This document shows, piece by piece, positions 15,253 to 64,000 of a stretch of DNA of 64,000 nucleotides. A model generated the notes under the pieces. The model was not told the origin of the DNA. It saw only the letters and a list, made by a program, of their open reading frames with translations, and did not search any database. A program made the position numbers and the translations under genes. Each line of letters starts with the position of its first letter. Position 1 is the stretch's first letter. Origin of the DNA: Pseudogymnoascus verrucosus (taxonomy: Eukaryota); NCBI GenBank assembly GCA_001662655.1, contig KV460211.1; one strand, written 5' to 3'.

Positions 15253-16471
15253 TGTTGGAGTTCGTGTGGTGTTGTTGCCAGGTCAGAGAGGGGGGGATGA
15301 AGTGCGATCTCAGATGATATGGGGAAACTCGCTATAAACTTCGAAACACACACTAACGAAGATCCAAGATGCAAGTCGCGAACAAGAGAAGATATACCTT
15401 AAAAGCTGCTCTTTTATTAGCACTTATAAAGGTAAAAGCCTAGTTTACTCTTTGTCCTTATTGGCGCGGAGAGATGGGATCGGGGTAGATCTCAAGGTCA
15501 CAGATTCGTTTCATGTCATGACGTTGTGGCTGAGCAGTGCCTCCATACGCAAGTGGGACAAGGGACCAAGATACCCAGATGTTTGCCTGGGAGATCAACA
15601 TCCAAGACATCGTCTCTCCGCCATCCCATTCCTTACAACCGCTCGTATAGCGGCTATATTGTTCATATATATAGATTCATTTCTAGGCGCTTACTGGCTT
15701 TGTGGAACGCGACGCGTCGACGAGGAAAGGCAGCACTTTGATTGTGCTTATGTAATCCTCTGGGCGTCGTCACTGATGCTTCTCGGCGGGCCGCAGCATG
15801 TGGGGATACAGCAATTGAGGCGTAGGTGTGGCAAATATTCCATTAAAAATAGGTGCTTATATTGAATAGTATCTAAACTATTTAATTAAGCATATATGTC
15901 TTCATAAAGATACTTTTAGCTCTACTTCAACCTGATATTTCGTCCCATTTCTCACATTTGGTGTACGGCGGCGGAATATTACTCCACCCCGTGATAGATC
16001 AGGATCGACACAGCCCTCACTTTTCGTGGGAACGAGTGGCTAGTTTCCTTGTAAGCGCCGAACAGAGGTTGACATGTGGCGGCGCCTGGTAAAACATGAG
16101 CGTCTGGATATAACTAGGAAAGGTAACCAATCCGAGTTTTTTTTGTAAATATAGCCCGAAATATAAGTAAGTACCTGATATACAGAGTCCAGAGACTCGT
16201 CCGAACATTCCGTACCTGAATTCCCCCCGCTCTCAAAGGAACCATACAGTATTGGATTGGACCCCACTCGGCTACAATAAGCAGCCACTCTAATAGTGGG
16301 GTACCCGTCGGATTTCTGAGAGGCCTTTATGTACGCCCCCTCTTGACTTCGCCCGCTCAATGACTGCCGCGCCGCCCTGCATACGTATAGTACATAAATA
16401 ACTCCATAAATACAGTGCACAGAGTGCCGCCTAGGTTTCCTGATCTAAGTTCATCAGACGATAAACCCAAA

Positions 16472-23244: not shown

Positions 23245-23685
23245 GGTGGATGTTGTTGTCGAAAGTTTTTTTGATGTGAGAAGTTCGCCAACAATATAAA
23301 TTCTTAGCTCAAGCCTTTCATGCGGCTGGATGTCATTTTTGCCGAGCACTATCGCGCCGCTACTGTAATCTGCATTTGGCCTTTCCCTCGAAATCTTAGA
23401 ACAGCTTTGATTCCGCCACAATTCCCACTCGAAGCTCGTCAAAACTTCCGTCACGTCTGAGGAAGTTTAAAATCACTATCAGGTTCACGAGCATGACTTG
23501 AGACGCAACGCGCTTCTGGACCCTATATTCCCCGCGGTTACGCCACAAGGCTGATCAGTGAGTATTCTGACCACTACCGCGACTCGCGGCAACCACGAGC
23601 AAGCCTTTGAGGACAGAGGCTAACTTTTGTTGTGTCTGCAGGCGCCTTATAAAATTTGCACTCCTCAGATACAAGCCCGACAAGT

Positions 23686-26600: not shown

Positions 26601-26985
26601 CTGGCCCGGCCTAGACCCCCGCAACCGCGCCAACGGCCAAAAGGGCCGCAACCGCCCCGCCGAAAGCGTAACCGGTGAATCCGTTGCCGCCAGCGAGATG
26701 ACGGACACCACTAGCAGCGTACTTGACGGTAAAGGCGCAAGCCAAGGCGGCGTTAGCCTCGGGCCCGCAGTCCACGACCAGAAGCAGACGAGCCTGAGCC
26801 AGTCGGACCGCCTGAAGCGGTACGTCGAGTCTGGCGGACGCCTGCCCGACTACAAGACCGGCGACGCTGGGAGCGTGTTCGGCGGCAGCTCGCTGCTGAG
26901 CGGCGCTGGACGACGCACCCTGGACGACGATGAGAAGAGCGTGTCCACTGCGTTTGCGAGCCAGGTCGGCGGGGGCTACGACTGA
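23686..26985 (+). CDS. UPF1: Nonsense-mediated decay RNA helicase Upf1/Nam7
   Basis: CH zinc domain ([15 protein letters not shown]), SF1 helicase motifs [32 protein letters not shown] at 23686; the track start at 23656 is a TTG. Confidence 0.97.
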
Positions 26986-41719: not shown

Positions 41720-44029
41720 TCAAATCATCATCAACCTCGTCGTCCTGCGCTCCATCCTCCCCATCCCTCCACCAACCCCAAGCATGCCTCCAGGGCCACC
41801 TCTCCCCCTCCCTCCCCGGCCCCTCGCCCTCATCTGCGCCCTCCTCATCGCATCCCTCTCACAATACACCCTCCCCCCCAGCTCAAAATACCCATCACTA
41901 ACCGGCCCCCTACAATCACTACAAACCAAACACCCAGGATGAAACTTCCTCCCCCCCATCCCCCCCCCTTTCGCCGTCTCCAAACACGGCCCCTCAATCC
42001 CGCCTCCACACCCACCACAACAACTCCCATTCAACCTATGATAATCCCGCGCGCAATACGGCGCATCATCCAGGACATAGAACGACGCCGTCGCAAACGG
42101 CGCCCGGCACGTCGTGCACGTAAAACACGCTTTGTGATAGTGCCCCGTCAGCCGCCCATCAGACGACGACAGCGACTTCCCCGTGATCGGCAGCTGGCAC
42201 GCCTTACACGCCCCCTTCGCCGTTGACGGGCGACGCGCGGGTGGTCCCGTGTGGGGGTTCATGGTGTCGGATGCTGCGGTGGAAGGACGGCGCGCGGGCG
42301 AGAAGGAGGGAGAGTGCGGTTGCGAGGGGTGGCGGAGGGAGGGGTTGGGTTGTTCGAGGCGCGGGGCGGATGGGCGGCGGGGGGAGTGGCCTTGTTGCGG
42401 GTTGTAGCGGCTGCCACTGCTGCTTTCGCGCGGGAGGCCGGGGGAGCGGAGTCCGGATTGGATTGCTGGGTCTGCGAACTCGGGGGAGAGGAGGGAGGGG
42501 TCTAGGTTCCTCCTTCCTCTCGCGTCTTGCACAGCGGGTTGTTGTTGTGGCTGTGGCTGCGGTACTGGCACCTCAGCGATGGCTTGCTCGAGGTCCTGCA
42601 TTAACCCGTCAAAACCGCCCATAGCGCTCTTCTCCTGCCTTCGTCGCGGCGGTTCGACCGATGACGGTGGGCTGGAGCGCGAGCTCGTCTTGCTGCGTGG
42701 GGAGTGGCTCGAGTCGCTGGAGGACTGCGAGACGGAGGGTGTGTGGAAGGGGTTTTGTGCACCGAACTCGGCGTCGAGGTTTATACCCGCTACGCTGCCT
42801 TGGCGTGCTAGCGGAGCTCCACGGGGTGGTGGAGGAGGTGTGATGGAGGGCAGGCGCGTGTGCGAGTCGCGCGGGGGGGAGGTGCGGACGAAGGTTGGGC
42901 CGTCGAAGGTGGTGGATGCGACGGTGGATGTTGAGGGGTGACGAGGGCGCGCGGACTCGGATGGTCGTCTCGGGAGGCCGACGAAGTTGCTTCCGCCTGG
43001 CGTGGCTTTTGGGAAGGTGTTGCTCCTGTTTGTGGGTGTGAGGGGCGGAGGCGCATCGAGTGATGACGATGATGAAGGTGGTGGCCCGAAGCCGCCATAG
43101 CCACCGGGGCGCTCGGTTCGGATAGGAATTGGAGGGATTTCGGAGCGCGGGGGTGAGCGCGAGGACATGGAAGACCCCGACGAGGTGCTACGGCCGTGGG
43201 CGCGGCCGTCGGTGGATTTCGCCCGCATATGATTCGGCTCTTCGTCTACCGCTTCCTCTGTACCCTCACGCTTGCCTCGACGTCCCTTGATATCAAACGG
43301 GCCGGGGGCAATGGTGTTCATCCTCTTCAACACCCCGCCGCCCTGGCCCAACCTCGGGCTCACCGGCGCATATCTCGGGTCCGCTTCAGCGTACTGCTGC
43401 GGCCTCGCGAGGTACGGGCTTTTCGGCGGCGGGAAGGGCGGGAACGAGCTATCGGCGTTTGTGGCGAGGAAGTCGGGGGAGGAGCGGTCGTTGATCTGTG
43501 TGCGAGCGGCGCCGAGGGCACGTGGGTAGGGCGAGCGTAGACCGTCGCTAGGGGTCATGGGGGAGGCGCTGCGGGACTCGCTGGAGGCTGAGACGGGGGT
43601 GAGTTGGTCGGGGCGGGTGAAGGGGCGGTCTGGGGAGGATGGTTAGCTTGTGTGTTTTCTGTGGTTGTGGAGATGGAGACGTACTGGCTGCTCTGGTGTC
43701 TACACGCGGCGGTGGTAGACGGGTGGATTTATATGCGCCGCTGTTGTCGGGCGGCGGGAGAGGTTTGCTATCGTATGGGGAGTATGTGGAATAGCCTTTT
43801 GAAGAAGGCTCTAGCGGCGGCGTGGCTATGGAGTTGTCAGTTACTGTCCTTCCCCCTTTCTCCGATGTCTTTGTTTCTCTCGCGTCCTGGAGCTTGGTGG
43901 TGGAATGGGAAGCTTACGCTCAGCAGGGCCGCAGACATGCTCGCCCATCATGGAGATCTCGATCTCCTGCGCACACATAGAGCACTTTATCGTCGGCAGG
44001 AAGCCTGACATCCTGCTGGTGTCCGCCAT
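41720..44029 (-). CDS. PXL1: Paxillin-like LIM-domain protein; exons 43918-44029, 43685-43825, 41720-43629
   Basis: N-terminal LPTIKCSMC..EHVC; two C-terminal LIM domains CKACQLPI..YHKACFTCTTC..YCARDY and CCGGCGGGI..FHPGCLVCSDC..YCERD; both introns canonical and in frame. Symbol tentative. Confidence 0.75.
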
Positions 44030-47000
44030 GGTCCTGCGCTCTCAGGTCTCCTATTCTGGATATTGCAACATGCGGCAGCGCTCCAGGCTAATAGTCCAGA
44101 TGCGCGGTGTGGGTTGTGAGCGAGCAGATTCGGAGAAGGCTACCTGCGCCTTTTGTTGTTGTTGTCGACTCTGTTGGTTGAGGTCTCCTTGGTAGGTTAG
44201 GGAGATACGAAGGAAACCAAGCACGATTATTGAAGCAAGGACGAAGAAATGTCTTGGTTTCCGGCACTTCAAGCAGAGGGTATGTACAGAAAAGTCTTTA
44301 ACAGCGGCAGTGGAATGCGCGACGGCGAGGTGCAGCTTAAACAATTGTTTGGAAACGTGGAGAGGGAGGTGGGTGTTACAGAGGTGTGTCGGGTGTGCAA
44401 CAGAAGGACGGTTCGACGGTCGACGGGCCTCTGGCGGTCCATATGCACGGAGGGTCTATGCACGGGAGAGACATATGCAGGTACCAGGTACCACACCACG
44501 GTGACACCCACAAGGTGCACGGATCACATGCTCAGTGCAGCGAGTAGGAGTTGAGGATTGGAGGAAGTTGAGGGGAGGGGCGAGAGGGAGAGAGGGGGAT
44601 TGGCGGTTGATGACAATCTGCGGTGTGTTGCTCTCGATGCTTGTAACTTCACGGGTTGCACTCTGTCGACCTCCTTTTTCGTTGTTCTCATATTAGGGAC
44701 AGTTAGAAAATCATCAGGAGTAACTCGACGAACACACAACGCCATTCTCATGCACATCATCAATATCACATCCCCATCTCCCACGCTCTAGAACTCTAGA
44801 ACTCTAGAACTCATCTCATCACACCAGCCCGCCGCCGTGCCAACGGTGGATGGTCGATGGTCCCATCTGCACGACATGGCATCCCCCATACAAAGGAGTC
44901 CATGGTGTAGTAATGACGCTCCCCTCCAGCCGTGATCACTTCCCCTTTCAGCCGCCCCAGGACCAGCCGGGTTAGCAGTGGGTCAGGATGGTGCGCATCA
45001 CCCGCCACCTCCGTCGCATCCAGACTGGTCCCCCGATGGGTCGCTATGGGGATTACAGTTGAGGGTTTACGAGATTAGGCCAGGATCCAATCCAGCTGGG
45101 GTGCTGACTGTAGATGGTGGTGGTGCGGCGAGGGCGATGGGGGTTGGGTGGGACGGTCCAGGGTAAGCGCTGTCATCTCCAGGGCTGGCTGTTCCTGGCC
45201 ACACGCTGTATGTTTCAGAGCGCCACAAGGGCAGGCAGGGTCCTGATTTGGACGGTGGTGAAGGCTGATGTTGAATGAGGAAATTGCTATGGTGGTGTGC
45301 AGTAAGTAAGCAGGTTATCGTGTTGTACCCGACTTCACGCACGACAGAAATATCCCTCTCTGTACCGGATTGACCGGACGGATGAGATACTCAAAAGAAC
45401 TCGAGTCCCTCTCGTTCATTAGCCGTCGTCTTTTTCGGAGATTTGATCTGTGCATCCCTTCCGCATTGGGACGACGCCACGATGGGTGGGATCGAGAAGG
45501 GGGGTGTGCTTCGGCTAGGACCGGGGGGGTCTTGTAACAACCCCCTATTGTTTGTTGGTCAGGGCGGCTATTTGGGATATTATGGGATGAAAGAGTAGAG
45601 TTATATATAATTGTGGGATTCCTGCATTATGGGTGCTATGGTTAAAATGTCACACGTGTGTTGGCAGGAATGAGAGAGCGGTGGATGAAGAAAAAATAAG
45701 TATGTAAGGGCAGGAAAAGAAGAGGTGTGAAGAATTTGGCTTCGGTTAGGTGCAGCACGGTCGCAGTGCAGGTACTGTGCAGCACCACTGCGAACCCCTT
45801 TTTTCACGTGTTTGCTCCATTCAGGGTCCTTGCTCGCGTGTGTAAACGGGGTACGGCATACATCGTACTTGCGTAATCCAGAAAGATAGAGATAAGAAGG
45901 AACGAACCAAGGAACGCCCGGATGCCGGAAGAGAAGAGAGGGCTTTCATAAACAGATGCCGCCATTAATCCCCTAGATCCAGTTTGCTGCACCAGACAAC
46001 ACAGCACAACACCGCACACGATATCAACACCGCACGCACACTGGATAAGGAATTATGGAGCCCCGGCGATCAACATATGCCGGTGTTTCTTGGAACCGCA
46101 ACGTTGCGCCCTCACCGCTCCTTCAACGCTGTTATTCCTCCGCTCTGGCCTCCTGCGGTTTCGCTGTAGCCTTGCTGGTGGTGCAGAATCTAACCCCTCG
46201 AACTTGCGGAATCTGGTACAAGATCTCTTCATGACAGCAGGCACTATTCCCGCTCAAGTAATCCGTGCACAACTGATCGGCTTTCCCCTCAATCCTCTCA
46301 ATAGGTGGGGGGGTGTTGTTGTCTGGCGATCAGTGCTCCGTTGTTGCTCCGTTTGCTCCTGATTGCTGCTGATTGTTGTGCTGGTCGTGTGTGTGATTTG
46401 GTGTGGTTTGGTGGTATTTTGGCGGTGTTTTTGTTGCTCTGAGCTGAGACAATTATCCGTCCCCCGCTGTTGTAATCATGATCACGTGACCACCACACAT
46501 GAAATTTTTGACAAGTTGGCGGAGGTGGGGGTGACCGCGGGGCTTTCCCCTCCTCAACCACCGGAACACCTGGAGATACTTTCAACAAACTCCACCATAG
46601 CCATTCTGCCTCCTAATGGACCAAATTAATATGAGAAAATTGTATAAAATCGTATAAAAAATAACAAAAAATACCATCACAACCGGAAAATGTTTAATAA
46701 AATGTCTTGGACGTACGCCAATTCACCCTTTCCGCGCGTCTTCTATACGTACACCTCTTTTGCTGCGTTACGTACTCTTCCATTTCCCTACTTTCCTGCC
46801 CCGCCAAATATGCACCACCACTTAGAGCCCAGCATGCTCCAATGACGCCTGCACTTTCCCGCCGATAGTGGAACAAAACCCACCATCCCACCTCACCAAA
46901 CCACCTGCTAGCTCCTCCGAACTTTCCCTGGGCTCCCGTACAACCGCACATTCCCAAAAACACACATAAACACCCCTCCTTCCCCTCTTCCGCTCTTCTT

Positions 47001-49016: not shown

Positions 49017-50299
49017 GCTTGTTGTCCTGTCTTGACAATACGAGGTTGATATGCACAGCACCTGAGAAGGGATTTTTAATTCTGGGACCCCCTCTTTCTC
49101 CGCTTTTTGATGGACTGGATGGGTAGGCTTGAAAGGGCTTGCTTGTCCTTTTTGTCATGGGTGGTGATAGGGGAGTCGGTATGGAGATATGTTATAGCGA
49201 TGCCATGAGCCTGCTGTTCAGCAACGGTGTCTGGTGGTAGTTGCAGCCGCTCGTTTGTAGGTCCCTTTAGTAGGGGCTGAAAATTGAAGGTTGTGCGTTT
49301 GCAAAACATTTTGGTTTTTGATGATTGTGATATGATGTGATGTGATGTGAAGTCTTTTGTATGTGCTGTTGTAGTATTGTAAACCTGATCTGTTGTCTCA
49401 TGCTGGCTAAAATTGTAGGAGATTCTAAGAGGGACTGTCCGTAATATCAGTGCGTACAGCAACTGTAGTTTTGGTAAAGGTGTTCGGTCACTCAGGGTTA
49501 CAGTCAATAAGCCAGTTGCTCAAGACATGTTAAGTTAAGAGAGAAGTTAGATCCTATTAGCGCAAATTGCTGGTATGATACCTCATCCTTACGATCCGCT
49601 AGAGCATAGATATACGGTACGTATTTGCTTTGCTGTATGCCTCTTCCCTATGTACATTGTAGTAGATTTGTGGGAATGAGTTGAGACGGTTGGTAGGGTG
49701 TTGTATAATTCTTGTTTTATCATATTTGCATTTTAGGAATTTATATATATATACATGCAATTTAATTAAACCATATGTCCCCGCCACAAACCACACACTA
49801 TTTATCCTTTCATTATCTACTACCTTTCTTAGACCCTGTTTCATATTTGATTTACATCCTCTACTCACTAGGCCGAGGGGCAGTGGTTTCGCATCACGCC
49901 ACTCTAAGACCACAGCGTCCCTGTTCCTGACATGGCGCGACGAAAACCAAAATAGCCTCATCTGAAAGAGTGACTCTTAAACTAACTAAACAAACCACCC
50001 ATTAGCTCCCACATCGGGTAACTGACTAGTAGTGTAGTCTAAATTCTCATTCTGTCTATTCCAAAATGCCTTTATATAAACATCCCCATCCATCCAAGCA
50101 TCCTATTCTCCATCATCAAAGTCTCATCCGTCCTTGCTTGCCGCAACTTCTTTATTTATTTATTTTCCCTCGACCTGTTCGGAGCTGGTTTTACTCGACT
50201 CGACTAGATCAGGGATTATTATTATCAAAATACATCGCCTTGATCGGCCTGTAAGGTGAGATTGTGAGGCTTTGCAAGAGCCGCGAGCGACGCTTTTTC

Positions 50300-50923
50300 A
50301 TGATGCCCGCCTGGAGCTGTCACATGGGGGAGTCGTCCATAGAATCGCACCTCGCAGAATTGCAAATAGCAGAACTGCCCTCTGTAGAACTACTGTCCGC
50401 AGAGTCGCTTTTCGAAGAACCACCCTCCGAAGAATTGTCCTCTGAAGAATCGTCCTTTGTCGTCCACACTACGTCCTCGTTGCTGAATCCGGCTCTATCC
50501 TCGTCACCAAATCGCACTACAAGCCCCTATTTAGATAGAGCTGAACCGCAGCCACAGCTCAGTAGCCCTTGCTATTCGCCATTCGACCATCTACCTATGG
50601 AACTATTCCAACTCATAATCTCATTTCTCCCTCCTCTAGCCGCCGCTTCACTTAGCCTGACATGCCGGTCAGCCCAGTCTATCATCCGAACCAAATACTT
50701 CGATCAGCTCCAAGGAAAAGATTGGCGTAAGAGAAGACTTGAGTTCTTACATCTCCTAGCGAGAGGTCTGCCTGCCCACATCGTGTGCATTGCATGCGAA
50801 ACCCTCCACAGCCGTACACAGAAGCAACTCCACAAAGCGACGCCCTGCAAGAAAGAAGAGCGGACGGGGTGCCCAATTCTCTTCAGTCTATGGTCGTATG
50901 TGAAAGATACACGTGTAGTCTAA
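50300..50923 (+). pseudogene. Truncated F-box protein gene (left paralog)
   Basis: SPFDHLPMELFQLIISFLPPLAAASLSLTCR..LARGLPAHIVCIACETLH aligns with the 58.6-59.9 kb paralog, but similarity stops at the 47-bp repeat (50857) and the ORF ends shortly after. Confidence 0.65.
50857..50903 (+). repeat. 47-bp direct repeat, left copy
   Basis: agagcggacggggtgcccaattctcttcagtctatggtcgtatgtga, 45/47 identical to 57625-57671. Confidence 0.9.
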
Positions 50924-51294: not shown

Positions 51295-52259
51295 CTATGT
51301 AGACTTGAAGAAATTTCTCATGTCAACATTCTTGTCAAAAACTCCCACCGCTGCAGCAGATCGACTCTTTGTGGCTACGTCTTTGATCCGTTGGTTGACT
51401 TCTCCAACAACACTCTCCGGCATTCCTACCAAAACCTTTGAATCATCGGAAGTTATGACGTTACTGATATCCTGACGGGTCCGTTTAGGCTGCACTTGTG
51501 AGAAGATGACTACAGAGGAAACTTCGTCAGCCTCCAATAGGCCTTTCTGCTTCTCGACCTCTTGTGTGGCTAGGGCTCGCTGAGCACCGCCATCTTCTTC
51601 GTCCTCTAGCTCCTCCTGCAGATCTTGCATACGTCTTTGTGCTTCATCCTGCTGCTTCTTAGCGAGATCTATATGTTCTTGGATCTGTGTCTCGAGAGCC
51701 TGCAATTGGGTCTTTAGTTTCTTGCGATCAGTCCCTGACGTTCGTTCAGAGCGGAGTTGAACGATTCTTTCCAGGGCGTCAGCATGCATTCGTGATCATG
51801 ATGTCAAGGGCTCACCTACAACTGGGTACTTGTAATTGCAAACTGAACTGTGTCCTGGCAAGACTGAACCTGCATTCTAAAAGTCCGGATTTTCTCCTTG
51901 TTCCAAACGCCGACTGAAAATCGGTCTCTAAGTGAGATTTTTGTACTGGTAGAATGTTTCGTCCACCGCTTTAGATTGTCTGCAAAGTCGGCACATGCCT
52001 GCCCACAGTTGTTAACAGCTTCGACGATACCGGTTTTCTCCAGATCCACTTTCGCTGCGACATAAATCGTGGGGTCTGAAATGGTGAGTTTTTCCAGAGC
52101 TGCCAACGGGCGCTGTACGCCTTCTAAGGTCAAGGCAATATCTCGTGCGACTTCTTCAGCCTCGGCAAGATCGTTAATATTATCATAGAGTTGGGCAATG
52201 CTGGACATAGCAAACTGTGTGATGCCTATGGCGCCTGCGGTGATGCTGAGGGGATCCAT
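51295..52259 (-). CDS. HeLo-like cell-death effector (303 aa) with C-terminal two-repeat HET-s-related amyloid motif; exons 51820-52259 and 51295-51766
   Basis: N-terminal MDPLSITAGAIGITQFA hydrophobic helix typical of HeLo-like domains; GTAGGT..GCTGAC..AAG intron gives STQL|IVQLR; coiled coil; R1 QDISNVITSDDSKVLVGMP, R2 QRIKDVATKSRSAAAVGVF, aromatic tail MRNFFKST. Confidence 0.85.
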
Positions 52260-52674
52260 AAGCTCTGCACTTCGGATTTATTCTAAGATTTGGTAAATGA
52301 CTGCCATATAGAACCAGAGGAACGGCTACAGAGGAGGCAGGATATTCGTTTGATAGATGACTATTTACGAATGAATTCTGAGGAAACAAGAAAAAGATGA
52401 CCGTTGGGGGACAGCAATGAACTTTATTTGGCCTCCCCCCAGCTAAAGGCAACACTGCGGGGTTGTAGCGAATCATCGTGTCTAACTTACTGTAGCTGGA
52501 AAATGAGCCTAACGAGGCATTTTCTTTCAACTGAGACCCAGCTTGAATTGATAATGATACAGTCTTTGCCAAACATTCCTGGAGATCTTGATACACTATT
52601 AGCGTGACGGCACTACAAGGACTGACTCTCGCACGACTAGCAAAGGCGGGGCTGTTATCGTCGCGCCAAAGCCG

Positions 52675-55600
52675 ATGGCAGGCATCACTCAAGACATTAG
52701 CAGCGTATTCATCGACCACCATTCACGGGGCGCTGTGGGTACCTTTCACGCACCAGTGTATTTTGGGAACAAAGAAAGTGAGTAAATGTAGTTTTACGCA
52801 AATGACAAGGCTAACCAGTAGTTTAGACTTTTATGATGTGCTCAACACCCTTCCTAATGCCGTGAACGCGCGATTCAACGCATATCAGCGACAACATGAC
52901 CCGACCTGTCTCCCCAATACCCGCGTCGACCTTCTTCAAGATATATACAGCTGGGCTGACGGCCAAGATGAGCGATATATCTTCTGGCTAAACGGTCTGG
53001 CCGGCACGGGGAAGTCGACAATTGCGCGTACCGTGGCCCGTAGATACCACGAGCAGAAGCGCCTCGGAGCCAGCTTCTTCTTCTCGCGAGGCGGTGGAGA
53101 TGTGGGCCACGCAGGCATCTTCGTCACAAGCATTGCGTTGCAGCTGGCGAGCAGCGTGCCCTCTCTCGACCAGTACATTTGCGATGCAATCAAAGAGCGG
53201 CGCGACATCGCGAGCCAGTCTCTCCGCGATCAGTGGCAGCAACTCGTCGTACGTCCCCTGTCGAAGCTTAGCGGAAGTGGAAGTGGTGGCCCGTTCCCAT
53301 ACATTCTCGTGGTTGATGCGCTCGATGAGTGCGACAATGACAAGGACATTCGCACCATCGTTAACCTCTTGACTGAAGCTCGATCGCTCAACGCCGCGTG
53401 TTTGCGGGTCTGTCTAACGAGCCGATCTGAGGTTCCAATTCGAAACGGATTTGGTGAAGTGCCAGACGTTGAGCACCGGGACTTTGTACTTCACACCATA
53501 TCGCCACAGATCGTAGACCGCGATATCTCTCTTTTCCTACAGCACAACCTCAAGCTCATCGGAAAGGAACAATCTCTAGGCATCGACTGGCCCGGCGCAA
53601 AAGTTATCGAACAATTTGTTCAGATCGCCGGAAGTTTGTTCATTTGGGCAGCAACAGCATGTCGATACATTCAAGATGGCCTATGCGCAGGCGAGAATCT
53701 GCAAATTTTGCTAGGAGGCAGCACATGTACCACTGCACCAGAAGAGCACCTGAATGAGCTCTATACTACTGTACTCAGAAGGTCTGTTCATCAGCATTAC
53801 TCAGTAATAGAGAAGAAAGCACTATACAGCATGCTACAGCGCATTCTTGGGAGCATTGTTGTTCTCTTCTCCCCGCTCACTGCCAGTTCGCTTCGCAGGC
53901 TACTTGATATCGATAAAGACAAGATTAACCAGGCGTTAAAGGATCTTCATGCAATTCTGGATATCCCTAGGGACGATGCTCACCCACTTTGCCTGCATCA
54001 TCCTTCATTTCGCGACTTCCTGCTCGACCCTAAAAGATGCGCAGATAAAGATTTCTGGGTGGACGAGGAGCAAGCGCATCAAATCTTAGCCGACAGATGT
54101 ATACAGCTCATGTCGATATCGCTCAAGCAAGACATCTGTGGTGTAGGTGATCCCGGCATACTTGTAGCCGATGTCGAGAGAAGTTTCATTAAGCAAGGTG
54201 TTTCTCCCGAAGTTCAGTACGCCTGTTGCTACTGGATGGATCATGTTCAGAAGAGCGGCACTCAACTCCGCGACAACGATCAAGTACATGTTTTCTTGCA
54301 AGAGCATCTTCTTCACTGGCTGGAGGCTCTTGGATGGATAGGAAAAATCTCAGATGGTGTTCATGCCATGGCATCTTTAGAGTCATTTGTTTCAGTCAGT
54401 AATATATGCTACAACTTAGGGAAAGGTCTCGCTAACAGTGTAGATAGACTAGTGAATGCCCAGGACTCTGGAGCTTCGTTCACGATGCGAAGCGGTTCGT
54501 GCTGTATAATCGAGTAGGGATCGAGCAGTCTCCGCTCCAGACGTACGGTAGTGCACTTGTATTCGCACCAGCATCGAGCATAGTAAGAAAGAATTTCGAG
54601 TATTGCATACCTAAATGGATACAAAAGCTTCCAAGAGTAGAGAATGAATGGAATACCTTGCTGCAGGTGCTTGAAGGCCACATGCAGTCCGTCAACGCCG
54701 TGACTTTCTCGCCGGACGGCAAGATGATCGCGTCGGCATCGGACGACAAGACCGTCAAGTTGTGGGACCCTGCTTCGGGCGCGCTGCTGCAGACGCTCGT
54801 GGGCCATTCGGCCTCAGTCCACGAATGTACGTTCTTACCCAACTCCAAGAGCCTGATATCGATATCGCTAGATGGGGAGGTCAACGTCTGGAATAGTGGC
54901 ACAGGAGATTTGCTCCTTAAGCTTAGTGATTCGACAGCAGTCAACTCCGCCGTTTCTCATAACAAGGAAGTGGTACCGCTGTCTGGTACCTTGCAAAAAC
55001 CAGCAATTGTACAGCACGTGAGCTTTTCTAGCACAGTTTATGCCAACTTAATATCACCTAACGGCAAGCTGCGTGCGTCATGGTCAAACAGAAACGTCAC
55101 GCTACGGGATACCAACTCGGGAGCAGAAATTTGCACGCTTAATCAGAGCCCCTTTTTTCCAGTTAAGGCTATAGGCTTCTCGCAGGACAACAAGATGCTA
55201 GCGCTAGTGTCTAGCAACGAAGTCACGCTATGGGATACTAAATTGGGAGCAGAAATTTGCACGCTTAATCCGACCCTTTGGGACCCAGTTAAGACTATAA
55301 GCTTCTTGTGGGACAACAAGATGCTAGTGTTATTGTCAAACAGAGAAGTTACACTATGGGATACTGAATCAGGAACACAGCGTTGTATGCTTAAGGACCT
55401 TTGCTGCGAACTAGTTGAGGCTATAGGCTTCTCGCAGGACAGCAAGATGCTAGTGTTAGTGTCAAGTAGAGAAGTTACGCTATGGGATACGGAATCAGGA
55501 GCGCGACTTTGCAGGCTTAGGGACCTTTTCAACCTAGTTGAGGCTATAGGCTTCTTGCAGGACAGCAAAATGCTAGTGTTAGTGTTAAACAGAGAAGTTA

Positions 55601-57063
55601 TGCTATGGGATATCAAATTAGGAGCAGAACTCTGCAGGCTTAAGGACCTTCAGTACCTAGTCGAGGCTATGGTCTTGTCACAGGACAGTAAAATGGTAGC
55701 GTTGGTGTCAAACAGAGAAGTTACTCTATGGGATACCAACTTAGGAGCAGAACTTTGCAGGCTTAAGGGCGTTCAGGGCCTAGTTAAGGCTATAGCATTC
55801 TCACAGGACAACAAAATAGTAGCATTAGTGTTTGACAGAGAAGTCACGCTACAGTATACCAACTCAGGAGCAGAAGTTCGCAGGCTCAGGGGCGTTCAGG
55901 GCCCAGTCAAGGCTATGGGCTTCTCGCACGACAGAAAAATGCTAGCGTTGGCTTCTAGTACGACGGTTATACTGTGGGAGATTAGCACAGGAAAGGTAAT
56001 TCAGACATTTGAACGCTATGCAGGGGTAAAGTTTGCCAAAGCTACTTCTTTAGACGGCAAGCTACGAGCAGAGGTATCGGGCTCTAGGGTAGTCAGGCTC
56101 CGGAATGATGTTTCGGGAGAGGGATTTCGATCGCTTGAAGGCCATTCTAATCAGATTATAGCCCTTGACTTCTCTCCAGATACCAAGTTGCTGGCATCGG
56201 CATCGAGGGACAGAACGGTCAGGCTATGGGACACCGGCATAAAGCCAGCTCTCCCTTCACTTGATGCACACTGGGATTACGTCACTGCGTTGACTTTCTC
56301 GCCAGATGGCAAGTTTTTGGCGTCCGCAGCGAATGACTGCAGAGCGAAGGTGTGGGACACTGACAAAATAGCACTACTCAGAAATTTTACCGTTCATTTG
56401 GGTCACGTTAATAACATGATCTTCTCGCCAGATAGTAAGCTGCTGGCGTTAGCATCGACTGACGGTACAATCTCTCTACGAAAGGCCGCTGAGGGAACAG
56501 TTGTTGAGACTCTAAAAGGCCATTCAACATGCATCATTGCAATGGCTTTCTCACCAGATGGTAAGAGACTGGCGTCGGCATCAGGCGATAAAGCAGTTAA
56601 GCTGTGGGATGCAGCAATGGGAAAGGAGCTTAAGACGCTCCAGGATCCTTCGGACCGGGTCAACGCCGTTGGCACCGTTGGCTTCTCACCGGACGGCAAG
56701 ACGGTCGCGTTGGCATCGAGCAACAAGACCGTCAAGCTGTGGGACACCGCCTCGGGCGTCCTGCTACAGACGCTCAAGGGCTATTCTGGCCCCATCAATG
56801 CTGTGGCCTTTTTGCCAGACGACAAGATACTCCACACGAACAGAGAAACCCTACTTATTTCCTTATCTTCTTCTGGCACGTCTGAAGCCCAAACACTGCC
56901 TCCGCCTTCCATTTCCATCGAAGGACATTGGGTGCTTCGCCGTACCAAACGGATCCTTTGGCTTCCTCCCGACCATCGACCAAGGGTCACCACTATTCAT
57001 GGAAGCACCATTGGTTTTGGGTACACATCTGGGAGAGTTGCAATAATTAAGTTGGCTCCATGA
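52675..57063 (+). CDS. NACHT-WD40 NLR (HET-E/NWD-like, 1428 aa) with N-terminal single amyloid motif; exons 52675-52777, 52827-54394, 54448-57063
   Basis: Exon 1 MAGITQDISSVFIDHHSRGAVGTFHAPVYFGNKE; introns GTGAGT..GCTAAC..TAG and GTCAGT..GCTAAC..TAG keep frame; TCLPNTRVDLL, Walker A GLAGTGKS, Walker B VVDALDEC, LHHPSFRDFL, HDAKRF, WD40 repeats. Confidence 0.9.
55087..55980 (+). repeat. Seven tandem 120-123 bp atypical WD repeat units within the NLR
   Basis: Recurring V(K/E)AIGFSQD(N/S)KML.LVS.REVTLWDT..GA..C.L units with obvious nucleotide-level similarity. Confidence 0.9.
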
Positions 57064-57624: not shown

Positions 57625-57671
57625 AGAGCGGACGGGATGCCCAATTCTCTTGAGTCTATGGTCGTATGTGA
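57625..57671 (+). repeat. 47-bp direct repeat, right copy
   Basis: agagcggacgggatgcccaattctcttgagtctatggtcgtatgtga, 45/47 identical to 50857-50903. Confidence 0.9.
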
Positions 57672-58647
57672 TTGTTATGCGTGTGTCGGGGACTAAATAC
57701 TGATGTTCTGTGTGTGGAGGTAGGGCCGCACAGATTCTAGACCGATCGGATCGGTTATCAGAACCCGATCTCTGCATCGGATCTGCATGCATATCGGATC
57801 ACAAACCTATTTTCGTAAGGCAGGTTGTCACTTGGCTCTCATGTAACATGGTTAGCCAAATAATGTTGAGATCAGATGCAAGCCACGTCAGCACTACATA
57901 GCGATAATTTGCTCAGATTAATTAATATGTTACCTTGGGAGGAAATAACCTGGCAAGCGTCCTGAAATTCTCCGTCTTCTTGTTTCACGGTTCGGAGATT
58001 TTACAATGCCCCCTATAGGTAGTCTCAGACTAAATGCCTATCATGCATAGGTGAGTTCTTGGCTCTCAACTCGGCTGGACGACCCATGTGATACTGATTC
58101 CGCCATAACCATCAACGAGATGGCCAGCTTTTTCCAAGACAAAAACCTTCACTATCTCCTCAACAGCGACAAATTAAAGCAGATCATCACCACCTTTCGC
58201 CACAGAGTCGACGCCAAAGAAATCCTCCTTGGCGGAAGCATCCCCCCGTCATGCAAAGAGACGAACGTTCTCACACAGCGATATGATCCCCTTAGCAAGC
58301 AAGAGGAAGGGGACGGGGTTGAGTGCGATTACAGGCTTGAAGGAGGGGAGTAGGGTGCTGGTTGGAGAGCCGCAGGGAGCGGTAGAGGAACAGTAAGTCA
58401 AGCAAGCAATACCAATTTGAGTAATTTCGGATAAAACGATGAATTGAAATCTGTTCCAATTCACAAAAAATAAGACAGCCATGATGATGCTACAGCTAAT
58501 AAGCTAGTTACTCAGCTAATACCCACCCTTCATGGTCTCCAACGCGGCCTGGAGTCGTCATGGGCCCTAGTCTGGGCCGCAGCCGCCGCCCTTCTCCCAC
58601 TCGCGCTGACGACCCTGCTAAATGCAAAATGAATACTGTTTTTATAG

Positions 58648-59857
58648 TCATTGCAGTTTAAGCCTAAACATGTCTGCTTTATATTTAGGGGTTAACAAGC
58701 TAGCTATATCAGCATCTGCTCCTTCATGCCCAGCTTTAATAAACCCTGCCTTAAATGGCAGCATCACGTCGTTTTCATTGTGACGAAGATGGCTTCTATA
58801 TTTGCTGTCTAGTAGATTCCAGCCTTCACCCAAGTCTAACCAACGCGTCAGTATTAACGCTACACCATGTTCAAAAGTTCATGGCGTCAATCTGGAACTC
58901 CGTAGGGCAGTCCATGCATTGGAAAAGGCCTGAGCAATTTAGGCATCCGGAATTGAGCTGTGCATTATCCCAGTGGCTTGCACGACAGGACATTTTTGTT
59001 CTAAGCTCCATCGAATGTGGCGTTATGAAATACCAATGAGAACAAACACATGCGTATGTCCTATCAGGGACCTCTATCTTCCTCCCAACTGGGAAGAGAA
59101 GCCAGGTTTGGTGCCGTAGCAAGAAATGACCATTTGCAATCCGCGGGGCGAACTTTTTGTGAAATATATGCTGAACGTCGGAAGCTCTGCGAAAGGGAAT
59201 CGAGCGGAATCCGGATAGTGAAGAGAGCTGGTCGTCGCAATTAAGGCCGCTATGGTGAAGCTTCATAGCTAAGAGAAATGCAACAGAGTTGAATTTTTCG
59301 TGGATATACCAAGTAACAGATGACGCACGATCTGCTAACGTACACCGCATCGGCTTGCTCTGTAATCTCAAGTATTCTAGCTGGGGCCGACTATGGAGTA
59401 CCTCGCACTCGAGGCATAATATGTGCCTTGGCAGATCTCTCTGCAGGAGATCTAAGAAAACAGCTCTGTCAACCCCATCAGCCACCCGAAGCTGATCGAG
59501 GTATTGGCTCCCTAGGATAAACCAGATTGGCCGGCAGGTGAGAGTAAATGAAGCGGCGGCTGAGAGGGGAAGAAATTCGGCTATAGACCCAATGAGCTCT
59601 GCTGGTAGTCGATTGAAAGGTGAGTTCTCAAGACTGCTTGGCTGAGATTGCGATTCAACAGTATCTGGTGATGGGGATATTGTGTGGGCGTGCGAGGAGG
59701 ATCTTCTCCGAATGAACGAGAGGTATTTCAATAGCCCTATCGGATGCTTGAAGAGCTCCATTTTGATAACACTTGATTTAGTCGAGTGCAGAATATGTGG
59801 CCGTGAGAAAGGATGGGCGAGGGTTAAGATTTCATGGGACAACGATCCTTGAACCAT
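58648..59857 (-). pseudogene. F-box protein gene (right paralog) with apparent frameshift near 58873
   Basis: SPFNRLPAELIGSIAEFLPLSAAASFTLTCR..CMDCPTEFQIDAMNF stop. The shifted frame continues EHGVALILTRWLDLGEGWNLLDSKYRSHL to 58648. Confidence 0.7.
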
Positions 59858-61362
59858 GTAGATATTTATATATTTGCGATTTGAGAATGGGGGGGATAAG
59901 TAATAGTTGCAGTAATTAGTTTAACTAGATTTTTAAGAGTCATCTTTCGATGAGGCTATTTTGGTTTTATCACACCACTCTAGAAACATAGCGTCCCTAG
60001 CTTGCAGTATACACCCTTCTCTGGTGGCCCAACCTTTTGGCTCTTAAATATAGTAAGTAAATTATATAGACGAAGATAAAATAAATTGCAAGGCATGACA
60101 TAAGGAAGGATTGGCGGTGGGAGAGAGTAGTGTAATTAAAAAAAACTTGTATAAATGAGAAAACCATAACAAATTACGTACCTCTGCACCTACCAACCCA
60201 ACCCATCTCTATAAACACTAAACACCCCTCAACAGGACATAAAATGTAGTATACGCATATAGCATGGTAAATATGTGCGTACTTCCCATGCTCGTGCTCT
60301 AAAGGGGGTTCGTACGAATGAGGTATCATACTGTAGTAGTCCTAAACTACACAACGCCAACACCAGGATATACCGCCATTTCTCGCCAGTACATCCACAG
60401 TTAGCGACATATACATCAATACACACATCATAGTACTCATATATCTCAGGCAGAATCCACAGTTCATTCCATCCTGTCAAATTTACACTACCCTCCCCTC
60501 CCACCATCATCATGCCCTCCCTCAATAGTCCAGCCATATCAGAGTCCAGTCCCCTTTCCCTCATGCAACCCCAAACCCAAAGCCAAGCCCAACAGCCAGC
60601 TTCACCACCGGCCCTCAGCCAAATATGTATGCAGCCTATCCATGCAAAAGTAATCCATCCCGGCTGCCTTTCTAACAGCCCCCCCCAAATCCCAAACCCA
60701 ATCCCGATCCCAATTCCCAAATTCCCATAATCCCGGTATTTCCCAGTATTCCCAAATTCCCCATGGTGGGAGGAGCAAATCCCTGTCTCCATCCCCCAAA
60801 TATCCGTTTGTAATTCGCCAGATAAACATCAAAAACAGAAGCAGAAGACAAAAGAAAAAAACAGAACAAACGATTTCGATCAGATGCCAGATCATGGACA
60901 AGACAAAAAAGGAAATTGGTATGTCGTTAAGAGGTGCGGTCGTTGGGGACACACAATGCAGACCTGCTGCGAAAGCGCCAGGGAGTGTATATATGTGGGG
61001 GGTTTCCTGCCCCCCAGTTCTCCTCCCGTTTGAAACCGGTAAAAAATGGGTAAATAAAAACTCATAGCTATAGGGGTATGTCTCGGTGTGCTCAAAAACA
61101 AAAAGGACGAAATATGTGCAAGGTTTTGCCCAGATGGGCGGTGTGTGTGGTTTGTGGTATCGTATCATCGAGATAGTATAGTGGTATAGTGTAGTTTGTG
61201 AGTGTGGTTGATCTCGTTGTTGCTTTGAGAGAGTAGTAGTTGATGTGTAATTTGAGGTTGAGCGGGTATTATGATGATCAGATAAGTGATGTGTTGTCGA
61301 AACAAGCCCCGAAAGGGGTGGTATAATACAAGTAAACAAGACGTCCTCCACGGCGTGCGCGT

Positions 61363-64000
61363 CTACGCACTATCCAGCGTCTTCGGCGTCACCGGCGTGC
61401 TCTGCGCACGCCCAATGATAGAGCGACCAAGACTCTTCAGCTTCCCGACTGCCTCAGGCGGGCCATCGACATAAATGCTCGTGGCCTCCTTAACCTTGAC
61501 CTTACAGCACAAAGTCGAGAAGAGAAACTGGTCACCATTCGCGTCCATCAGCGGCAACGTGCGGTATCCCTGCTTCAAGCTCCCCAACTTCGCCGTATAC
61601 GTCGCCAGCGGCGTGCCGCGGTCGTCGTAGCTATGTCCATCGCGCGACGCGCGCACCGTCCAGCGCACGAACACGAGGTCGGGGTACTTAGTCGTCAGCG
61701 CGAACTTGAATTTCTGGTTGAAGAGCGGATTGAAACCGTTCTCAGGCACGATCTGGGTGCGCAGGCGGCGCGGGGCGCCGAGACCAGAGGAACCGCCGCG
61801 GCCGGCGGCGTCGGGTCCGCCTTCGCCTACTACGCCTGCGACGTCTTTGGCTTTGTCGTCGGCGTGGAAGACTTCGACTTCGACGTAGGGGTCGACGGTG
61901 CGGGTGGCGGGGAGGTTCTTGGGTCGCATGAGCTGCTGCGCGGAGATAACCTCGATGCTGAAGGTGACCAGCTTGCGCTCTCGCTTGACGTAGCCCTCGC
62001 CAGCGGCCTCGGGGACATTGGGGAGCATGGTGATCTCGCGCAGGCCGCTGGGCTTGAGAACGTAGCCGGAAACATCGGTGCCGCCTTCGAACATGGCATC
62101 GTTGATCTGCATGCCAAGATCGTAGGTCTGCCAGTTAAGCGCGGCCATCTGCACGCCACGGCGCCAGTAGGTCAGCGGATCGAAGTTGGTCGAGGCGACG
62201 CGCCACCCGTTGGGGTACACGCGCATCATGTGGCGCATGTTGTGGCGCACGAGCGCGCGCTTGGTGTCGGGCGTCTTGCTGTTCTTCGTGAATGTCGCTT
62301 CCATGAAGGAGTAGATGTGGTTGTAGGTCTTGCTCTCTGGCGTGTCGAAGCCGTGGAACTTGACGCCTGCGGTGTACACCCCTAGGTCGCCGAGAACCTT
62401 GACAATGTTGCTCTGCTGCTTGCGCTTCTCGGAACCGTCGTCGTTCATGCTCTCGCTCTCGCTCGTGCTGTTGCTCAGGCTGTCCTGGCTCTCGCCGGCA
62501 TGTTGGGGGGATCGTATGCTTGTAGTCTGACTGCGGGTGATGCCCATGGTGGGACGTTGGCGAGGGCTCATCGGTGGGCTTTGCAGGATCGACGCGTTTG
62601 GGATCATGGTGTTGTCAAGCACGATCGGTCGCACGTACGGAGAGTTGACGCTGGCTCCGCGTCTCCGGCCAGCTGTCACCTCGGCGTTGAAGGCCGGCTC
62701 ATCACAAGGCATCTTGACCTTGATCAGGATGCGATTCATCAGCTGTGACGGGCTTGGCAGCTGCTGGGAGTTCGGGTCCAGTGGCTCAGTGACGAGTTTC
62801 GATCCGCAGGTCGCCTTGATGATCTCCGCCATCATGATTTGCTGCTGTCGGCTGCAGTGGACTTCGAGAGAGATCAACAGCGGGAACTGAGAGCTGACGA
62901 AAGCATACTTGCTGATCGTAGTCATGACATCGGCGAACGAGACTTGGCTCGTCAGTGTCCTGCCGTGCATGACGACAGGACCCTCGCTGCCATCCCAGCA
63001 GTCGACCTCGACGCAGCGACAACCCTTCGACAGTGCTGAGATATAGGCCTCGACGCTCGATTGGCCTGCAACCTGCCTTCCTAGAAGGTACGTGTTATGA
63101 GAGCTTGATATATAGTACTCGTGAAGTGGTCGGTCGAGGGTGAAGTTTGCTGGAACATCTTTAATCGGAACATTATATGTAGAGGTAAGGTAGCTCGCCA
63201 GAGCGGACTCGTTCATCAATGGAGTCTCGCCGTTTTGGAGGTCTTGCTGGGCTTGCTCCTTGGTCTTCGATCTCCGGACAAACTTGCTGAACACAGTCGT
63301 CCAGTGAGTGCGACGGCCCTCGACATCCTCACCTTGCGTGTCCTTCAAGAACACCAGGAAGTCCTCGAGGGTAATGCCCTTCTTATCCGGCACGGTGAGC
63401 TCGTTATACAGAGCCCGCACGTCCTCGCGCCTCTTCATGAGATTGATGAGCTCCTGGAACTGGCCATATGTAAGTAGCCCGCACTTCAGCTCATCGACCT
63501 GGGCAAATTTGGCACGCAAATGATTGTTGACACCATGGATGTGTAAGCTCCGGCAAAGGCGCTCAACGCCTGTGATATCAATCATCTCCTCGTCCTCGGA
63601 GTGCGCCCTGTCGCCAAACTGCTTATTCATCTCACGACGCCAGTACGCGCGGACCGCCTTGTCGTTGAAGGACGACAGCGACGCCATCAACTCGTGTCGA
63701 TGTTTCGAGATGGCATCGAGGGTAGTCGTCCATAGCTCAAAGGTCCTGTCATCACCGGCAATTAAATGCATCAATTTCTGCGATCGGCCTTTCGATTTAT
63801 CAGATATCACGTAGAGGATTGAGAAAAAGCGGCGTTCGTCACAGGCCGGCACGCCAAACTCTGAGCGATAATTCCGCGCGTCTGACCCCGAGCGAATTTC
63901 TTTGATGTCGTCAATGTAGAAAGCCTTTGACGGTCTGTTCTTGTCCCATGAGACCTTTGCGGCATCGATATCGAGAGCAAATGTAAGCAGCTTCCTCTTC
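61363..64000 (-). CDS. PLC1: Phosphoinositide-specific phospholipase C (5' end beyond the window)
   Basis: PH and EF regions, X domain YYISSSHNTYL..GCRCVEVDCWDG..HGRTLT, Y domain RVYP..NFDP..GVQMAALNWQTYD, C2 domain DPYVEVE..NGFNP. Confidence 0.95.
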   Translation of the reverse strand, partial: KRKLLTFALDIDAAKVSWDKNRPSKAFYIDDIKEIRSGSDARNYRSEFGVPACDERRFFSILYVISDKSKGRSQKLMHLIAGDDRTFELWTTTLDAISKHRHELMASLSSFNDKAVRAYWRREMNKQFGDRAHSEDEEMIDITGVERLCRSLHIHGVNNHLRAKFAQVDELKCGLLTYGQFQELINLMKRREDVRALYNELTVPDKKGITLEDFLVFLKDTQGEDVEGRRTHWTTVFSKFVRRSKTKEQAQQDLQNGETPLMNESALASYLTSTYNVPIKDVPANFTLDRPLHEYYISSSHNTYLLGRQVAGQSSVEAYISALSKGCRCVEVDCWDGSEGPVVMHGRTLTSQVSFADVMTTISKYAFVSSQFPLLISLEVHCSRQQQIMMAEIIKATCGSKLVTEPLDPNSQQLPSPSQLMNRILIKVKMPCDEPAFNAEVTAGRRRGASVNSPYVRPIVLDNTMIPNASILQSPPMSPRQRPTMGITRSQTTSIRSPQHAGESQDSLSNSTSESESMNDDGSEKRKQQSNIVKVLGDLGVYTAGVKFHGFDTPESKTYNHIYSFMEATFTKNSKTPDTKRALVRHNMRHMMRVYPNGWRVASTNFDPLTYWRRGVQMAALNWQTYDLGMQINDAMFEGGTDVSGYVLKPSGLREITMLPNVPEAAGEGYVKRERKLVTFSIEVISAQQLMRPKNLPATRTVDPYVEVEVFHADDKAKDVAGVVGEGGPDAAGRGGSSGLGAPRRLRTQIVPENGFNPLFNQKFKFALTTKYPDLVFVRWTVRASRDGHSYDDRGTPLATYTAKLGSLKQGYRTLPLMDANGDQFLFSTLCCKVKVKEATSIYVDGPPEAVGKLKSLGRSIIGRAQSTPVTPKTLDSA

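Follow-up and report, generated by a model that had tools for sequence, protein, structure and literature searches.

The locus at 51295..57063 of a 64,000-nucleotide stretch of contig KV460211.1 from Pseudogymnoascus verrucosus (GCA_001662655.1), referred to here as the window, raises the question of whether two genes placed head to head, one for a candidate effector and one for a nucleotide-binding oligomerization domain-like receptor (NLR), make up an amyloid signaling pair and, if so, to which of the described types the pair belongs. The answer was found to be, very probably, a two-gene fungal NLR signaling module of the class defined by the HET-s-related amyloid motif (HRAM), in the subfamily HRAM2. 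The gene structures, the domains and three copies of the motif, with conservation throughout the effector family, are all present, and the family has already been catalogued. All the features stated in an earlier note, made from this DNA alone, were confirmed to be in the sequence, and its class, an intact-looking pair of the HET-S/NWD2 type, was borne out by the domains, the repeats, the receptor motif (R0) and the gene models. The motifs and the segments that adjoin the two effector repeats (R1 and R2) are the following.

51418..51480, minus strand: R1, 21-residue HRAM repeat, effector residues 243–263, TRQDISNVITSDDSKVLVGMP
51400..51417, minus strand: loop between R1 and R2, six residues, ESVVGE
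51337..51399, minus strand: R2, 21-residue HRAM repeat, effector residues 270–290, VNQRIKDVATKSRSAAAVGVF
51298..51336, minus strand: C-terminal tail past R2, DKNVDMRNFFKST, with aromatic residues
52684..52746, plus strand: R0, single HRAM repeat, NLR residues 4–24, ITQDISSVFIDHHSRGAVGTF

According to the published rules, an HRAM repeat carries G at position 19, hydrophobic residues at positions 5, 8, 10, 16 and 18 (T being allowed at 10) and R or K at position 15 (Daskalov, Dyrka and Saupe 2015, PMC4518210). In 154 of 155 proteins the loop between the repeats measures 6–18 residues, and the second repeat is followed by a short tail in which aromatic residues are frequent (PMC4518210). The key residues of R1 were found to be Q3, I5, V8, T10, S14, K15, V16, V18 and G19, and those of R2 Q3, I5, V8, T10, S14, A16, V18 and G19; both repeats agree with the residue rules, and the loop and the tail agree with theirs. 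R0, with Q3, G16, V18 and G19 as its key residues, shares with R1 and R2 the G at position 19 and a hydrophobic residue or T at positions 5, 8, 10 and 18, and shares with R1 an R or K at position 15. It contains three S, two H, no K or E and few charged residues, and in published r0 motifs D, E and K are scarce and S and H frequent (PMC4518210). The two repeats had been claimed before, and they stand as claimed, apart from the trivial point that the nucleotide ranges given for them began at Q, one codon past the first residue of the 20-mers quoted.

The claim that R0, R1 and R2 share one motif also held when it was examined with the pattern Q-x-[IVL]-x2-[VIML]-x-[TAIV]-x3-[SA]-x3-[VIAL]-G, derived from the repeats of the effector family only. 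Among the 101,070 residues of the six-frame open reading frames (ORFs) of the window, this pattern matched three sites, which are R0, R1 and R2 and no other, against a mean of 0.085 matches per whole shuffled set (at least one match in 17 of 200 sets). When a hidden Markov model (HMM) was trained on the R1 and R2 repeats from 20 homologues, with the sequences of the window excluded, the ORF containing NLR exon 1 ranked first against 1766 other six-frame ORFs. Pairwise scores were determined with BLOSUM62, ungapped, on 20-mers (R0, NLR residues 5–24; R1, effector residues 244–263; R2, effector residues 271–290), and were 27 for R0 and R1 (8/20 identical), 29 for R0 and R2 (8/20) and 23 for R1 and R2 (7/20). 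When NLR residues 1–34 were shuffled and compared with the whole effector, scores of 27 or more were reached 77 times in 5000 and scores of 29 or more 36 times. The pairwise scores are thus unexceptional by themselves, and the positional pattern is the stronger test.

The effector repeats belong to a widespread family. The product of effector exon 2 was found to have, among longer proteins, 21 homologues at E ≤ 0.01 (E values from 1e-69 to 1e-22, identities of 53–84%), all of them PF17111 proteins of about 300 residues save one fusion of 1289 residues, from Mollisia, Eremomyces, Capronia, Fonsecaea, Monosporascus, Cladophialophora, Leptodophora, Alternaria, Stemphylium, Pyrenophora and others. 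The best protein match was from Mollisia scopiformis (84%); over R1, R2 and the tail the identity to the closest homologue is 83% across 71 residues, and the tail DKNVDMRNFFKST is kept in the closer homologues. Cluster representatives of the family numbered 99 at E ≤ 0.001, 68 of which were at 1e-10 or below. Conservation was counted over 70 aligned sequences, with loop length taken over the 69 that have both repeats, and the diagnostic positions were found in most members (R1 and R2, respectively: Q3 in 56 and 56, I5 in 70 and 60, T10 in 62 and 63, S14 in 65 and 60, V18 in 62 and 65, G19 in 66 and 67). The loop is six residues long in 67/69, and the spacing from R1 to R2 in the window effector is 27 residues. 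This spacing had been put forward as a trait of the locus; the measurement stands, and the trait does not distinguish it, being the rule in the family, equal to that of HELLF and given by a loop at the minimum of the published range. Charges at outward-facing positions were found to be opposite in R1 and R2 far more often than the same (opposite/same in the 70 sequences: 39/0 at position 4, 25/0 at position 12 and 14/1 at position 13), and the window effector itself shows D4/R4 and D13/R13. Such complementarity is as in-register stacking of the repeats predicts.

Two further proteins, P0206 (1041 residues) and P0234 (703 residues), consist of tandem repeats with units of about 58 residues, and 11 stretches in each weakly match the R1–loop–R2 region of the effector. 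As candidate arrays of many HRAM repeats, they were set aside, with 27% identity over 63 residues and a residue other than G at R1 position 19, the likeness being probably compositional.

The subfamily can be read from a few positions, since N, Q or H at position 3 mark HRAM1, HRAM2 and HRAM3, respectively, and Q18 and Q16 mark HRAM4 and HRAM5 (PMC4518210). R0, R1 and R2 all have Q3, and none has Q at position 16 (V, A and G in R1, R2 and R0) or 18 (V in all three). The marks of HRAM5 are lacking, R1 reading TRQD and VLV, and R2 VNQR and AAV. The canonical HET-s family (HRAM1) is likewise excluded by Q at position 3, and no match to the HeLo or HET-s prion-domain families was obtained in Pfam at E values up to 0.1. 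By the published rules and table, and not by re-clustering, the pair can be assigned to HRAM2, which the earlier note had held could not be decided. The suggestion that the motif variant was undescribed does not survive either, since the repeats, the six-residue loop and the NLR r0 are already in file S1 of the 2015 catalogue, where 8 of 155 rows have an [EA][SA]VVGK loop and all eight have an r0 from a neighboring NLR (PMC4518210). Row 34 of this file carries an 80-residue C-terminus that is the same as that of the Capronia epimyces homologue P0004, and its r0, SNQDISGVSITDHSRAAVGTF, has the same residue as R0 in 14 of the 21 positions, as counted by eye (PMC4518210). Corynespora cassiicola, with two proteins, is listed in Table 1 under HRAM2 only, and this effector family includes the row of that species in file S1 (loop EAVVGK) (PMC4518210); the family is therefore tied to HRAM2 independently of the position rules. 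HRAM2 and HRAM5 fall into one supergroup at PAM130 (PMC4518210), HRAM on HeLo and HeLo-like effectors is an established class with motifs resembling HRAM2 mentioned in a 2022 survey (PMC9815663), and the HRAM2 example given in a 2017 review is a Penicillium roqueforti pair (PMC5485727).

Compared with the catalogued HRAM2 pairs (PMC4518210, file S1), the window pair has the same PF17111 protein of about 300 residues, the same [EA][SA]VVG[KE] loop and aromatic tail, the same Q3, I5, V8, T10, S14, V18 and G19 in R1 and R2, and likewise a neighboring NLR whose r0 follows xxQxIxxV....S....G.F. The exon 2 product of the window effector is 71% identical to P0004. The differences noted against the pairs of that file are the species, a loop ending in E (as in the homologue P0001) instead of K, and G at position 16 of R0; they leave the type unchanged. 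The locus thus represents one more clean and apparently intact example of the catalogued amyloid signaling pairs, and what is known of the class is unchanged by it. Its wider value lies in being a possible test case for HRAM2, HRAM1 (HET-s) and HRAM5 (HELLF) having already been studied structurally.

The position of R0 at the receptor N-terminus depends on the gene models, which are made up of the following parts.

51820..52259, minus strand: effector exon 1, residues 1–146 and two bases of codon 147, N-terminal part of the HeLo-like domain
51767..51819, minus strand: effector intron, 53 nucleotides, GTAGGT donor, CTGAC branch, AG acceptor
51295..51766, minus strand: effector exon 2, residues 147–303 and the stop (51295–51297), helical C-terminal part of the HeLo-like domain, helical linker and prion-forming region
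52260..52674, between the genes: divergent intergenic region, 415 base pairs, presumably a shared promoter, judging from its position
52675..52777, plus strand: NLR exon 1, 103 nucleotides, residues 1–34 and one base
52778..52826, plus strand: NLR intron 1, 49 nucleotides, GTGAGT donor, CTAAC branch 10 nucleotides before the AG acceptor, junction 52777/52827
52827..54394, plus strand: NLR exon 2, NACHT NTPase module with Walker A GLAGTGKS and Walker B-like ILVVDALDEC
54395..54447, plus strand: NLR intron 2, 53 nucleotides, GTCAGT donor, CTAAC branch, AG acceptor
54448..57063, plus strand: NLR exon 3, WD40 repeat domain of about 16 units, and the stop

The start codons lie at 52259 (minus strand) for the effector and 52675 (plus strand) for the NLR, in agreement with the head-to-head arrangement, 415 base pairs apart, that had been described. 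All three introns of the two genes carry GT..CTRAC..AG signals and are 49–53 nucleotides long.

The NLR was found to be a protein of 1428 residues encoded in three exons on the plus strand with an uninterrupted frame. Its exon 2 matched NPHP3_N (E = 3.1e-30) and NACHT (28.8 bits against a cut-off of 26.7) in Pfam and its exon 3 WD40 (PF00400, E = 1.4e-79), so that a NACHT domain with Walker A and B motifs is followed by WD40 repeats, the architecture of NWD-type NLRs, and the exon 2 product has 2255 homologues at E ≤ 1e-20. The spliced protein is colinear from residue 1 with the annotated homologues P0022 (67% identity over 640 residues; itself annotated as a WD40-repeat NLR), P0023 and P0032, without gaps at either junction, that of intron 2 reading ...LESFVS|TSECPGLW.... 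NLR exon 1 aligned end to end with residues 1–33 of P0022 (13/34 identical, E = 0.004). The 103-nucleotide exon bearing R0 and the junction 52777/52827, both proposed earlier, are thus supported by canonical signals and by gapless homologue alignment, and the remark that the ORFs misread this exon was found to be right: ORF 52592–54517 reads the exon 1 region in another frame, and R0 lies within ORF 52603–52785. The placing of R0 at the N-terminus of the receptor would follow from the predicted splice of exon 1 to exon 2, for which these signals and homologues speak. With it, an effector adjoins an NLR whose N-terminus has one repeat, as in the HRAM class, where an adjacent NLR with the motif was reported for 98 of 155 such effectors (PMC4518210).

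Among the 120 listed NACHT-WD40 homologues (P0022–P0141), the N-termini vary widely, with HET-like starts (MRLL...), PNP_UDP-type starts and lipase-like starts. At least two further kinds of short N-terminal motif occur among these listed homologues, exemplified by ...GNQYQNIRINEGAKAQLGDIYHIG... and ...FGDANSGFQAGIVNGSVH.... The Q-type regular expression matches 3 of the 120 (P0022, P0042 and P0048), and P0023 and P0032 are similar by eye. Within the WD40 domain of the window NLR, a tandem array of seven copies was found at 55083–55949, with a period of 123 nucleotides (units of 123–126 nucleotides) and 78% matches. Its seven units are repeats of 41–42 residues ending in ...EVTLWDT that lack the usual GH signature, with ordinary WD40 units on either side. 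Internally similar repeats of such a kind are typical of fungal NLR sensors.

The effector was found to be a protein of 303 residues encoded in two exons on the minus strand, with an uninterrupted reading frame. The junction ...TSTQL|IVQLRSE is gapless in 18 of 20 homologues; the other two differ there, P0010 by a deletion and P0020 by an insertion. The product of exon 1 matched PF17111 in Pfam over residues 1–144 (E = 7.8e-18, 65.1 bits against a cut-off of 27.2), and the N-terminus MDP..GIT is almost invariant across 20 homologues. PF17111, currently named PigL_N, is the accession used for the HeLo-like domain in the 2022 survey (PMC9815663), and the HeLo-like domain claimed for this protein is accordingly present. 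A size of 303 residues with an N-terminal HeLo-like domain is in line with the effectors of the class, which have fewer than 310 residues and a HeLo, HeLo-like or sesA domain. Across both effector exons, neither HeLo nor any HET-s prion-domain family was found in Pfam at E values up to 0.1; besides PF17111, three unrelated families appeared below threshold. In the full-length homologues P0001 and P0004, PF17111 spans residues 1 to about 200 of about 305. An AlphaFold2 (AF2) model of P0001 (18-sequence alignment, mean predicted local distance difference test (pLDDT) score of 80.1) has helices up to residue 245, two long ones being at 160–200 and 206–245, followed by four strands. The long coiled-coil linker described previously is therefore only partly a linker: the helical stretch is real, and roughly half of it belongs to the HeLo-like domain, because PF17111 reaches about residue 200. 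With the full-length P0001 model, nothing was obtained by Foldseek at E ≤ 0.001, the top rows being designed helical repeats, and a wide VIA search gave Z values of at most 9.7 to generic helical bundles, against a guide value of about 13 for helical proteins.

Two systems from Podospora anserina are the nearest for which structures are available. HELLF/FNT1 (HRAM5; solid-state nuclear magnetic resonance structure 6EKA) resembles the window pair in its HeLo-like effector, in the two-repeat prion-forming C-terminus and in the adjacent NLR with one repeat. FNT1 is an NB-ARC/TPR receptor and not a NACHT/WD40 one. When the family profile was run against 177,635 PDB sequences, the top match was 6eka_A, the HELLF prion domain (E = 0.043), and the alignment was ungapped across R1, loop and R2, so the spacing in HELLF is 27 residues as well. 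Prion behavior and cell death have been shown by experiment for HELLF, and the hallmarks of HRAM5 were given as QxFG at positions 1–4 and QG(QI) at positions 16–18 (bioRxiv 10.1101/2020.07.06.188508); HELLF has these hallmarks, whereas R1 and R2 of the window do not. HET-S/NWD2 (HRAM1; 2RNM and 2KJ3), the source of the mechanistic model (PMC4518210), is likewise a divergent pair with a NACHT-WD40 NLR carrying a single N-terminal repeat, and HET-S shares with the window effector two 21-residue repeats and the pattern of hydrophobic residues with G19. It differs in having a HeLo domain, N3 and, in HET-s, a 15-residue loop (file S1, rows 2–4), in contrast to the HeLo-like domain, Q3 and six-residue loop of the window effector. 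The AF2 model of the last 71 residues of the effector (70-sequence alignment, mean pLDDT 82.6) gave a pattern of three strands that is alike in both repeats (11–16, 19–20 and 25–31 in the first; 38–43, 46–47 and 52–58 in the second). Foldseek with this prion-region model returned nothing at E ≤ 0.001, and re-alignment by VIA of its 51 weak matches gave Z of 2 or more in three only, 6EKA with 4.8 (root-mean-square deviation 4.8 Å, 51 residues aligned), 2LBU with 3.0 and 2RNM with 2.8. A prediction of the complex between the last 71 residues of the effector and NLR exon 1, run without controls, gave no answer (score of 0.00, mark of 0.34).

By analogy with HET-S/NWD2 and HELLF/FNT1, the pair would act through oligomerization, templating, a prion-like fold and cell death. 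The NACHT-WD40 receptor would oligomerize when its WD40 domain meets a ligand, and its N-terminal 21-residue R0 segments would then gather as a cross-beta template. On this template, the unfolded C-terminus of the effector could become a beta-solenoid of two rungs, in which R1 is stacked in register on R2, and formation of the solenoid would release the helix at the N-terminus of the HeLo-like domain, which may attack the membrane and so kill the cell.

Several results weigh against the assignment to a working HRAM2 pair. Eighty other unshuffled stretches of 34 residues from this NLR score up to 30, so that the pairwise scores of R0 with R1 and R2 are within their range. The HMM match to R0 is weak (7.9 bits, E = 0.27), and the runner-up ORF reached 7.6 bits over eight profile positions. 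At core position 16, for which the published rules call for a hydrophobic residue, R0 carries G, and A or I is found there in the r0 motifs seen in file S1 (PMC4518210). The structural matches to HET-s and HELLF lie under any mark of significance (Foldseek E values of 3.1 and 6.1, Z < 5), and AF2 may be recalling the HET-s fold from its training set. The route by which HRAM2 was assigned counts here too, and experimental work on HRAM2 was not found among the papers listed for that term.

That the locus is a decaying or inactive relic, in which the frames are open and signaling has been lost, is improbable. Under this explanation the G at core position 16 of R0 would no longer template, or the WD40 sensor would be degenerate, and its central seven units do lack the usual GH signature, one of them ending in LQYT instead of LWDT; truncated F-box gene fragments also surround the locus. 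Nevertheless, the frames of both genes are unbroken (303 and 1428 codons) and their splice signals intact, the Walker A and B motifs are kept in the NLR, the nearest homologue is as close over R1, R2 and the tail as stated above, and every diagnostic motif position is retained except position 16 of R0.

Somewhat less credible again is the explanation that the NLR is made without R0, either from a start at ATG 52802 or with exon 1 left unspliced, in which case no amyloid motif would link receptor and HeLo-like protein in this genome. NLR intron 1 contains an ATG, at 52802–52804, that shares the frame of the NACHT exon (ORF ...FTQMTRLTSSLDFYDVL), and a gene caller could therefore give a plausible NLR lacking R0; several listed homologues, such as P0025, P0038, P0043 and P0069, are annotated as starting near this point. 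Such short annotated N-termini are equally well explained by missed small exons, and intron 1 has the donor, the branch sequence and the length of a regular intron. From its ATG onward, exon 1 has no stop, three annotated homologues align with the product from residue 1, gapless across the junction, and R0 carries a family pattern that occurs elsewhere in the window only in R1 and R2. The locus also illustrates a practical point: its receptor motif, lying on a small first exon, is missed by ORF-based reading, and the annotations of some homologues with short N-termini may miss it too.

That the three-way similarity is chance, the C-terminal repeats having a role unrelated to the NLR, is hardly believable: pairwise scores of 27–29 are indeed attained by shuffles and by other NLR windows and the HMM E value is poor, yet three pattern matches were found where 0.085 are expected per window, the third of them falling exactly in the N-terminal 34 residues of the neighboring NLR, R0 is identical to the published r0 of an orthologous pair at two positions in three, and an adjacent motif-bearing NLR accompanies most such effectors (PMC4518210).

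The surroundings of the pair contain two kinds of repeated sequence. A direct repeat of 60 nucleotides, at 50857–50916 and 57625–57684 (88% identical), brackets the block of effector and NLR, with 6768 nucleotides from start to start. Its 19-nucleotide core occurs at these two places only in the window, with 0 expected; there is no further copy of the repeat in the window, and the similarity stops at 60 nucleotides. F-box gene copies flank the pair at 50255–50923 (plus strand) and 58871–59920 (minus strand), with a third, weak fragment at 46700–46892 (minus strand). The left ORF (F-box E = 2e-07) is 51% identical over 108 residues to the right, oppositely oriented one; this similarity ends after about 50821, and a further 170 residues or so of the paralogue have no counterpart in it. 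Neither the sequence after the right repeat nor the rest of the window was found to contain the missing C-terminal half of the left fragment. The copies and fragments suggest a rearranged region.

The bracketed 6.8-kilobase block starts about 35 nucleotides past the point at which the truncated F-box gene and its paralogue cease to be similar. From the bracketing repeat together with this point, the pair may have arrived as one inserted cassette, a view held to be unlikely; if it were true, amyloid-linked NLR pairs would move as units. The separate idea that HRAM2 forms a third HET-s-like channel with its own cross-seeding barrier is regarded as equally unlikely. Elsewhere in the window, genes were found for a UPF1 helicase (23653–26985), a LIM-domain protein (41720–43642), a PI-specific phospholipase C (61363–63999), a CorA-like transporter (10115–11638) and an AhpC/TSA_2 protein (14185–15282), and with these ordinary eukaryotic genes around it, the pair therefore lies in a normal chromosomal region.

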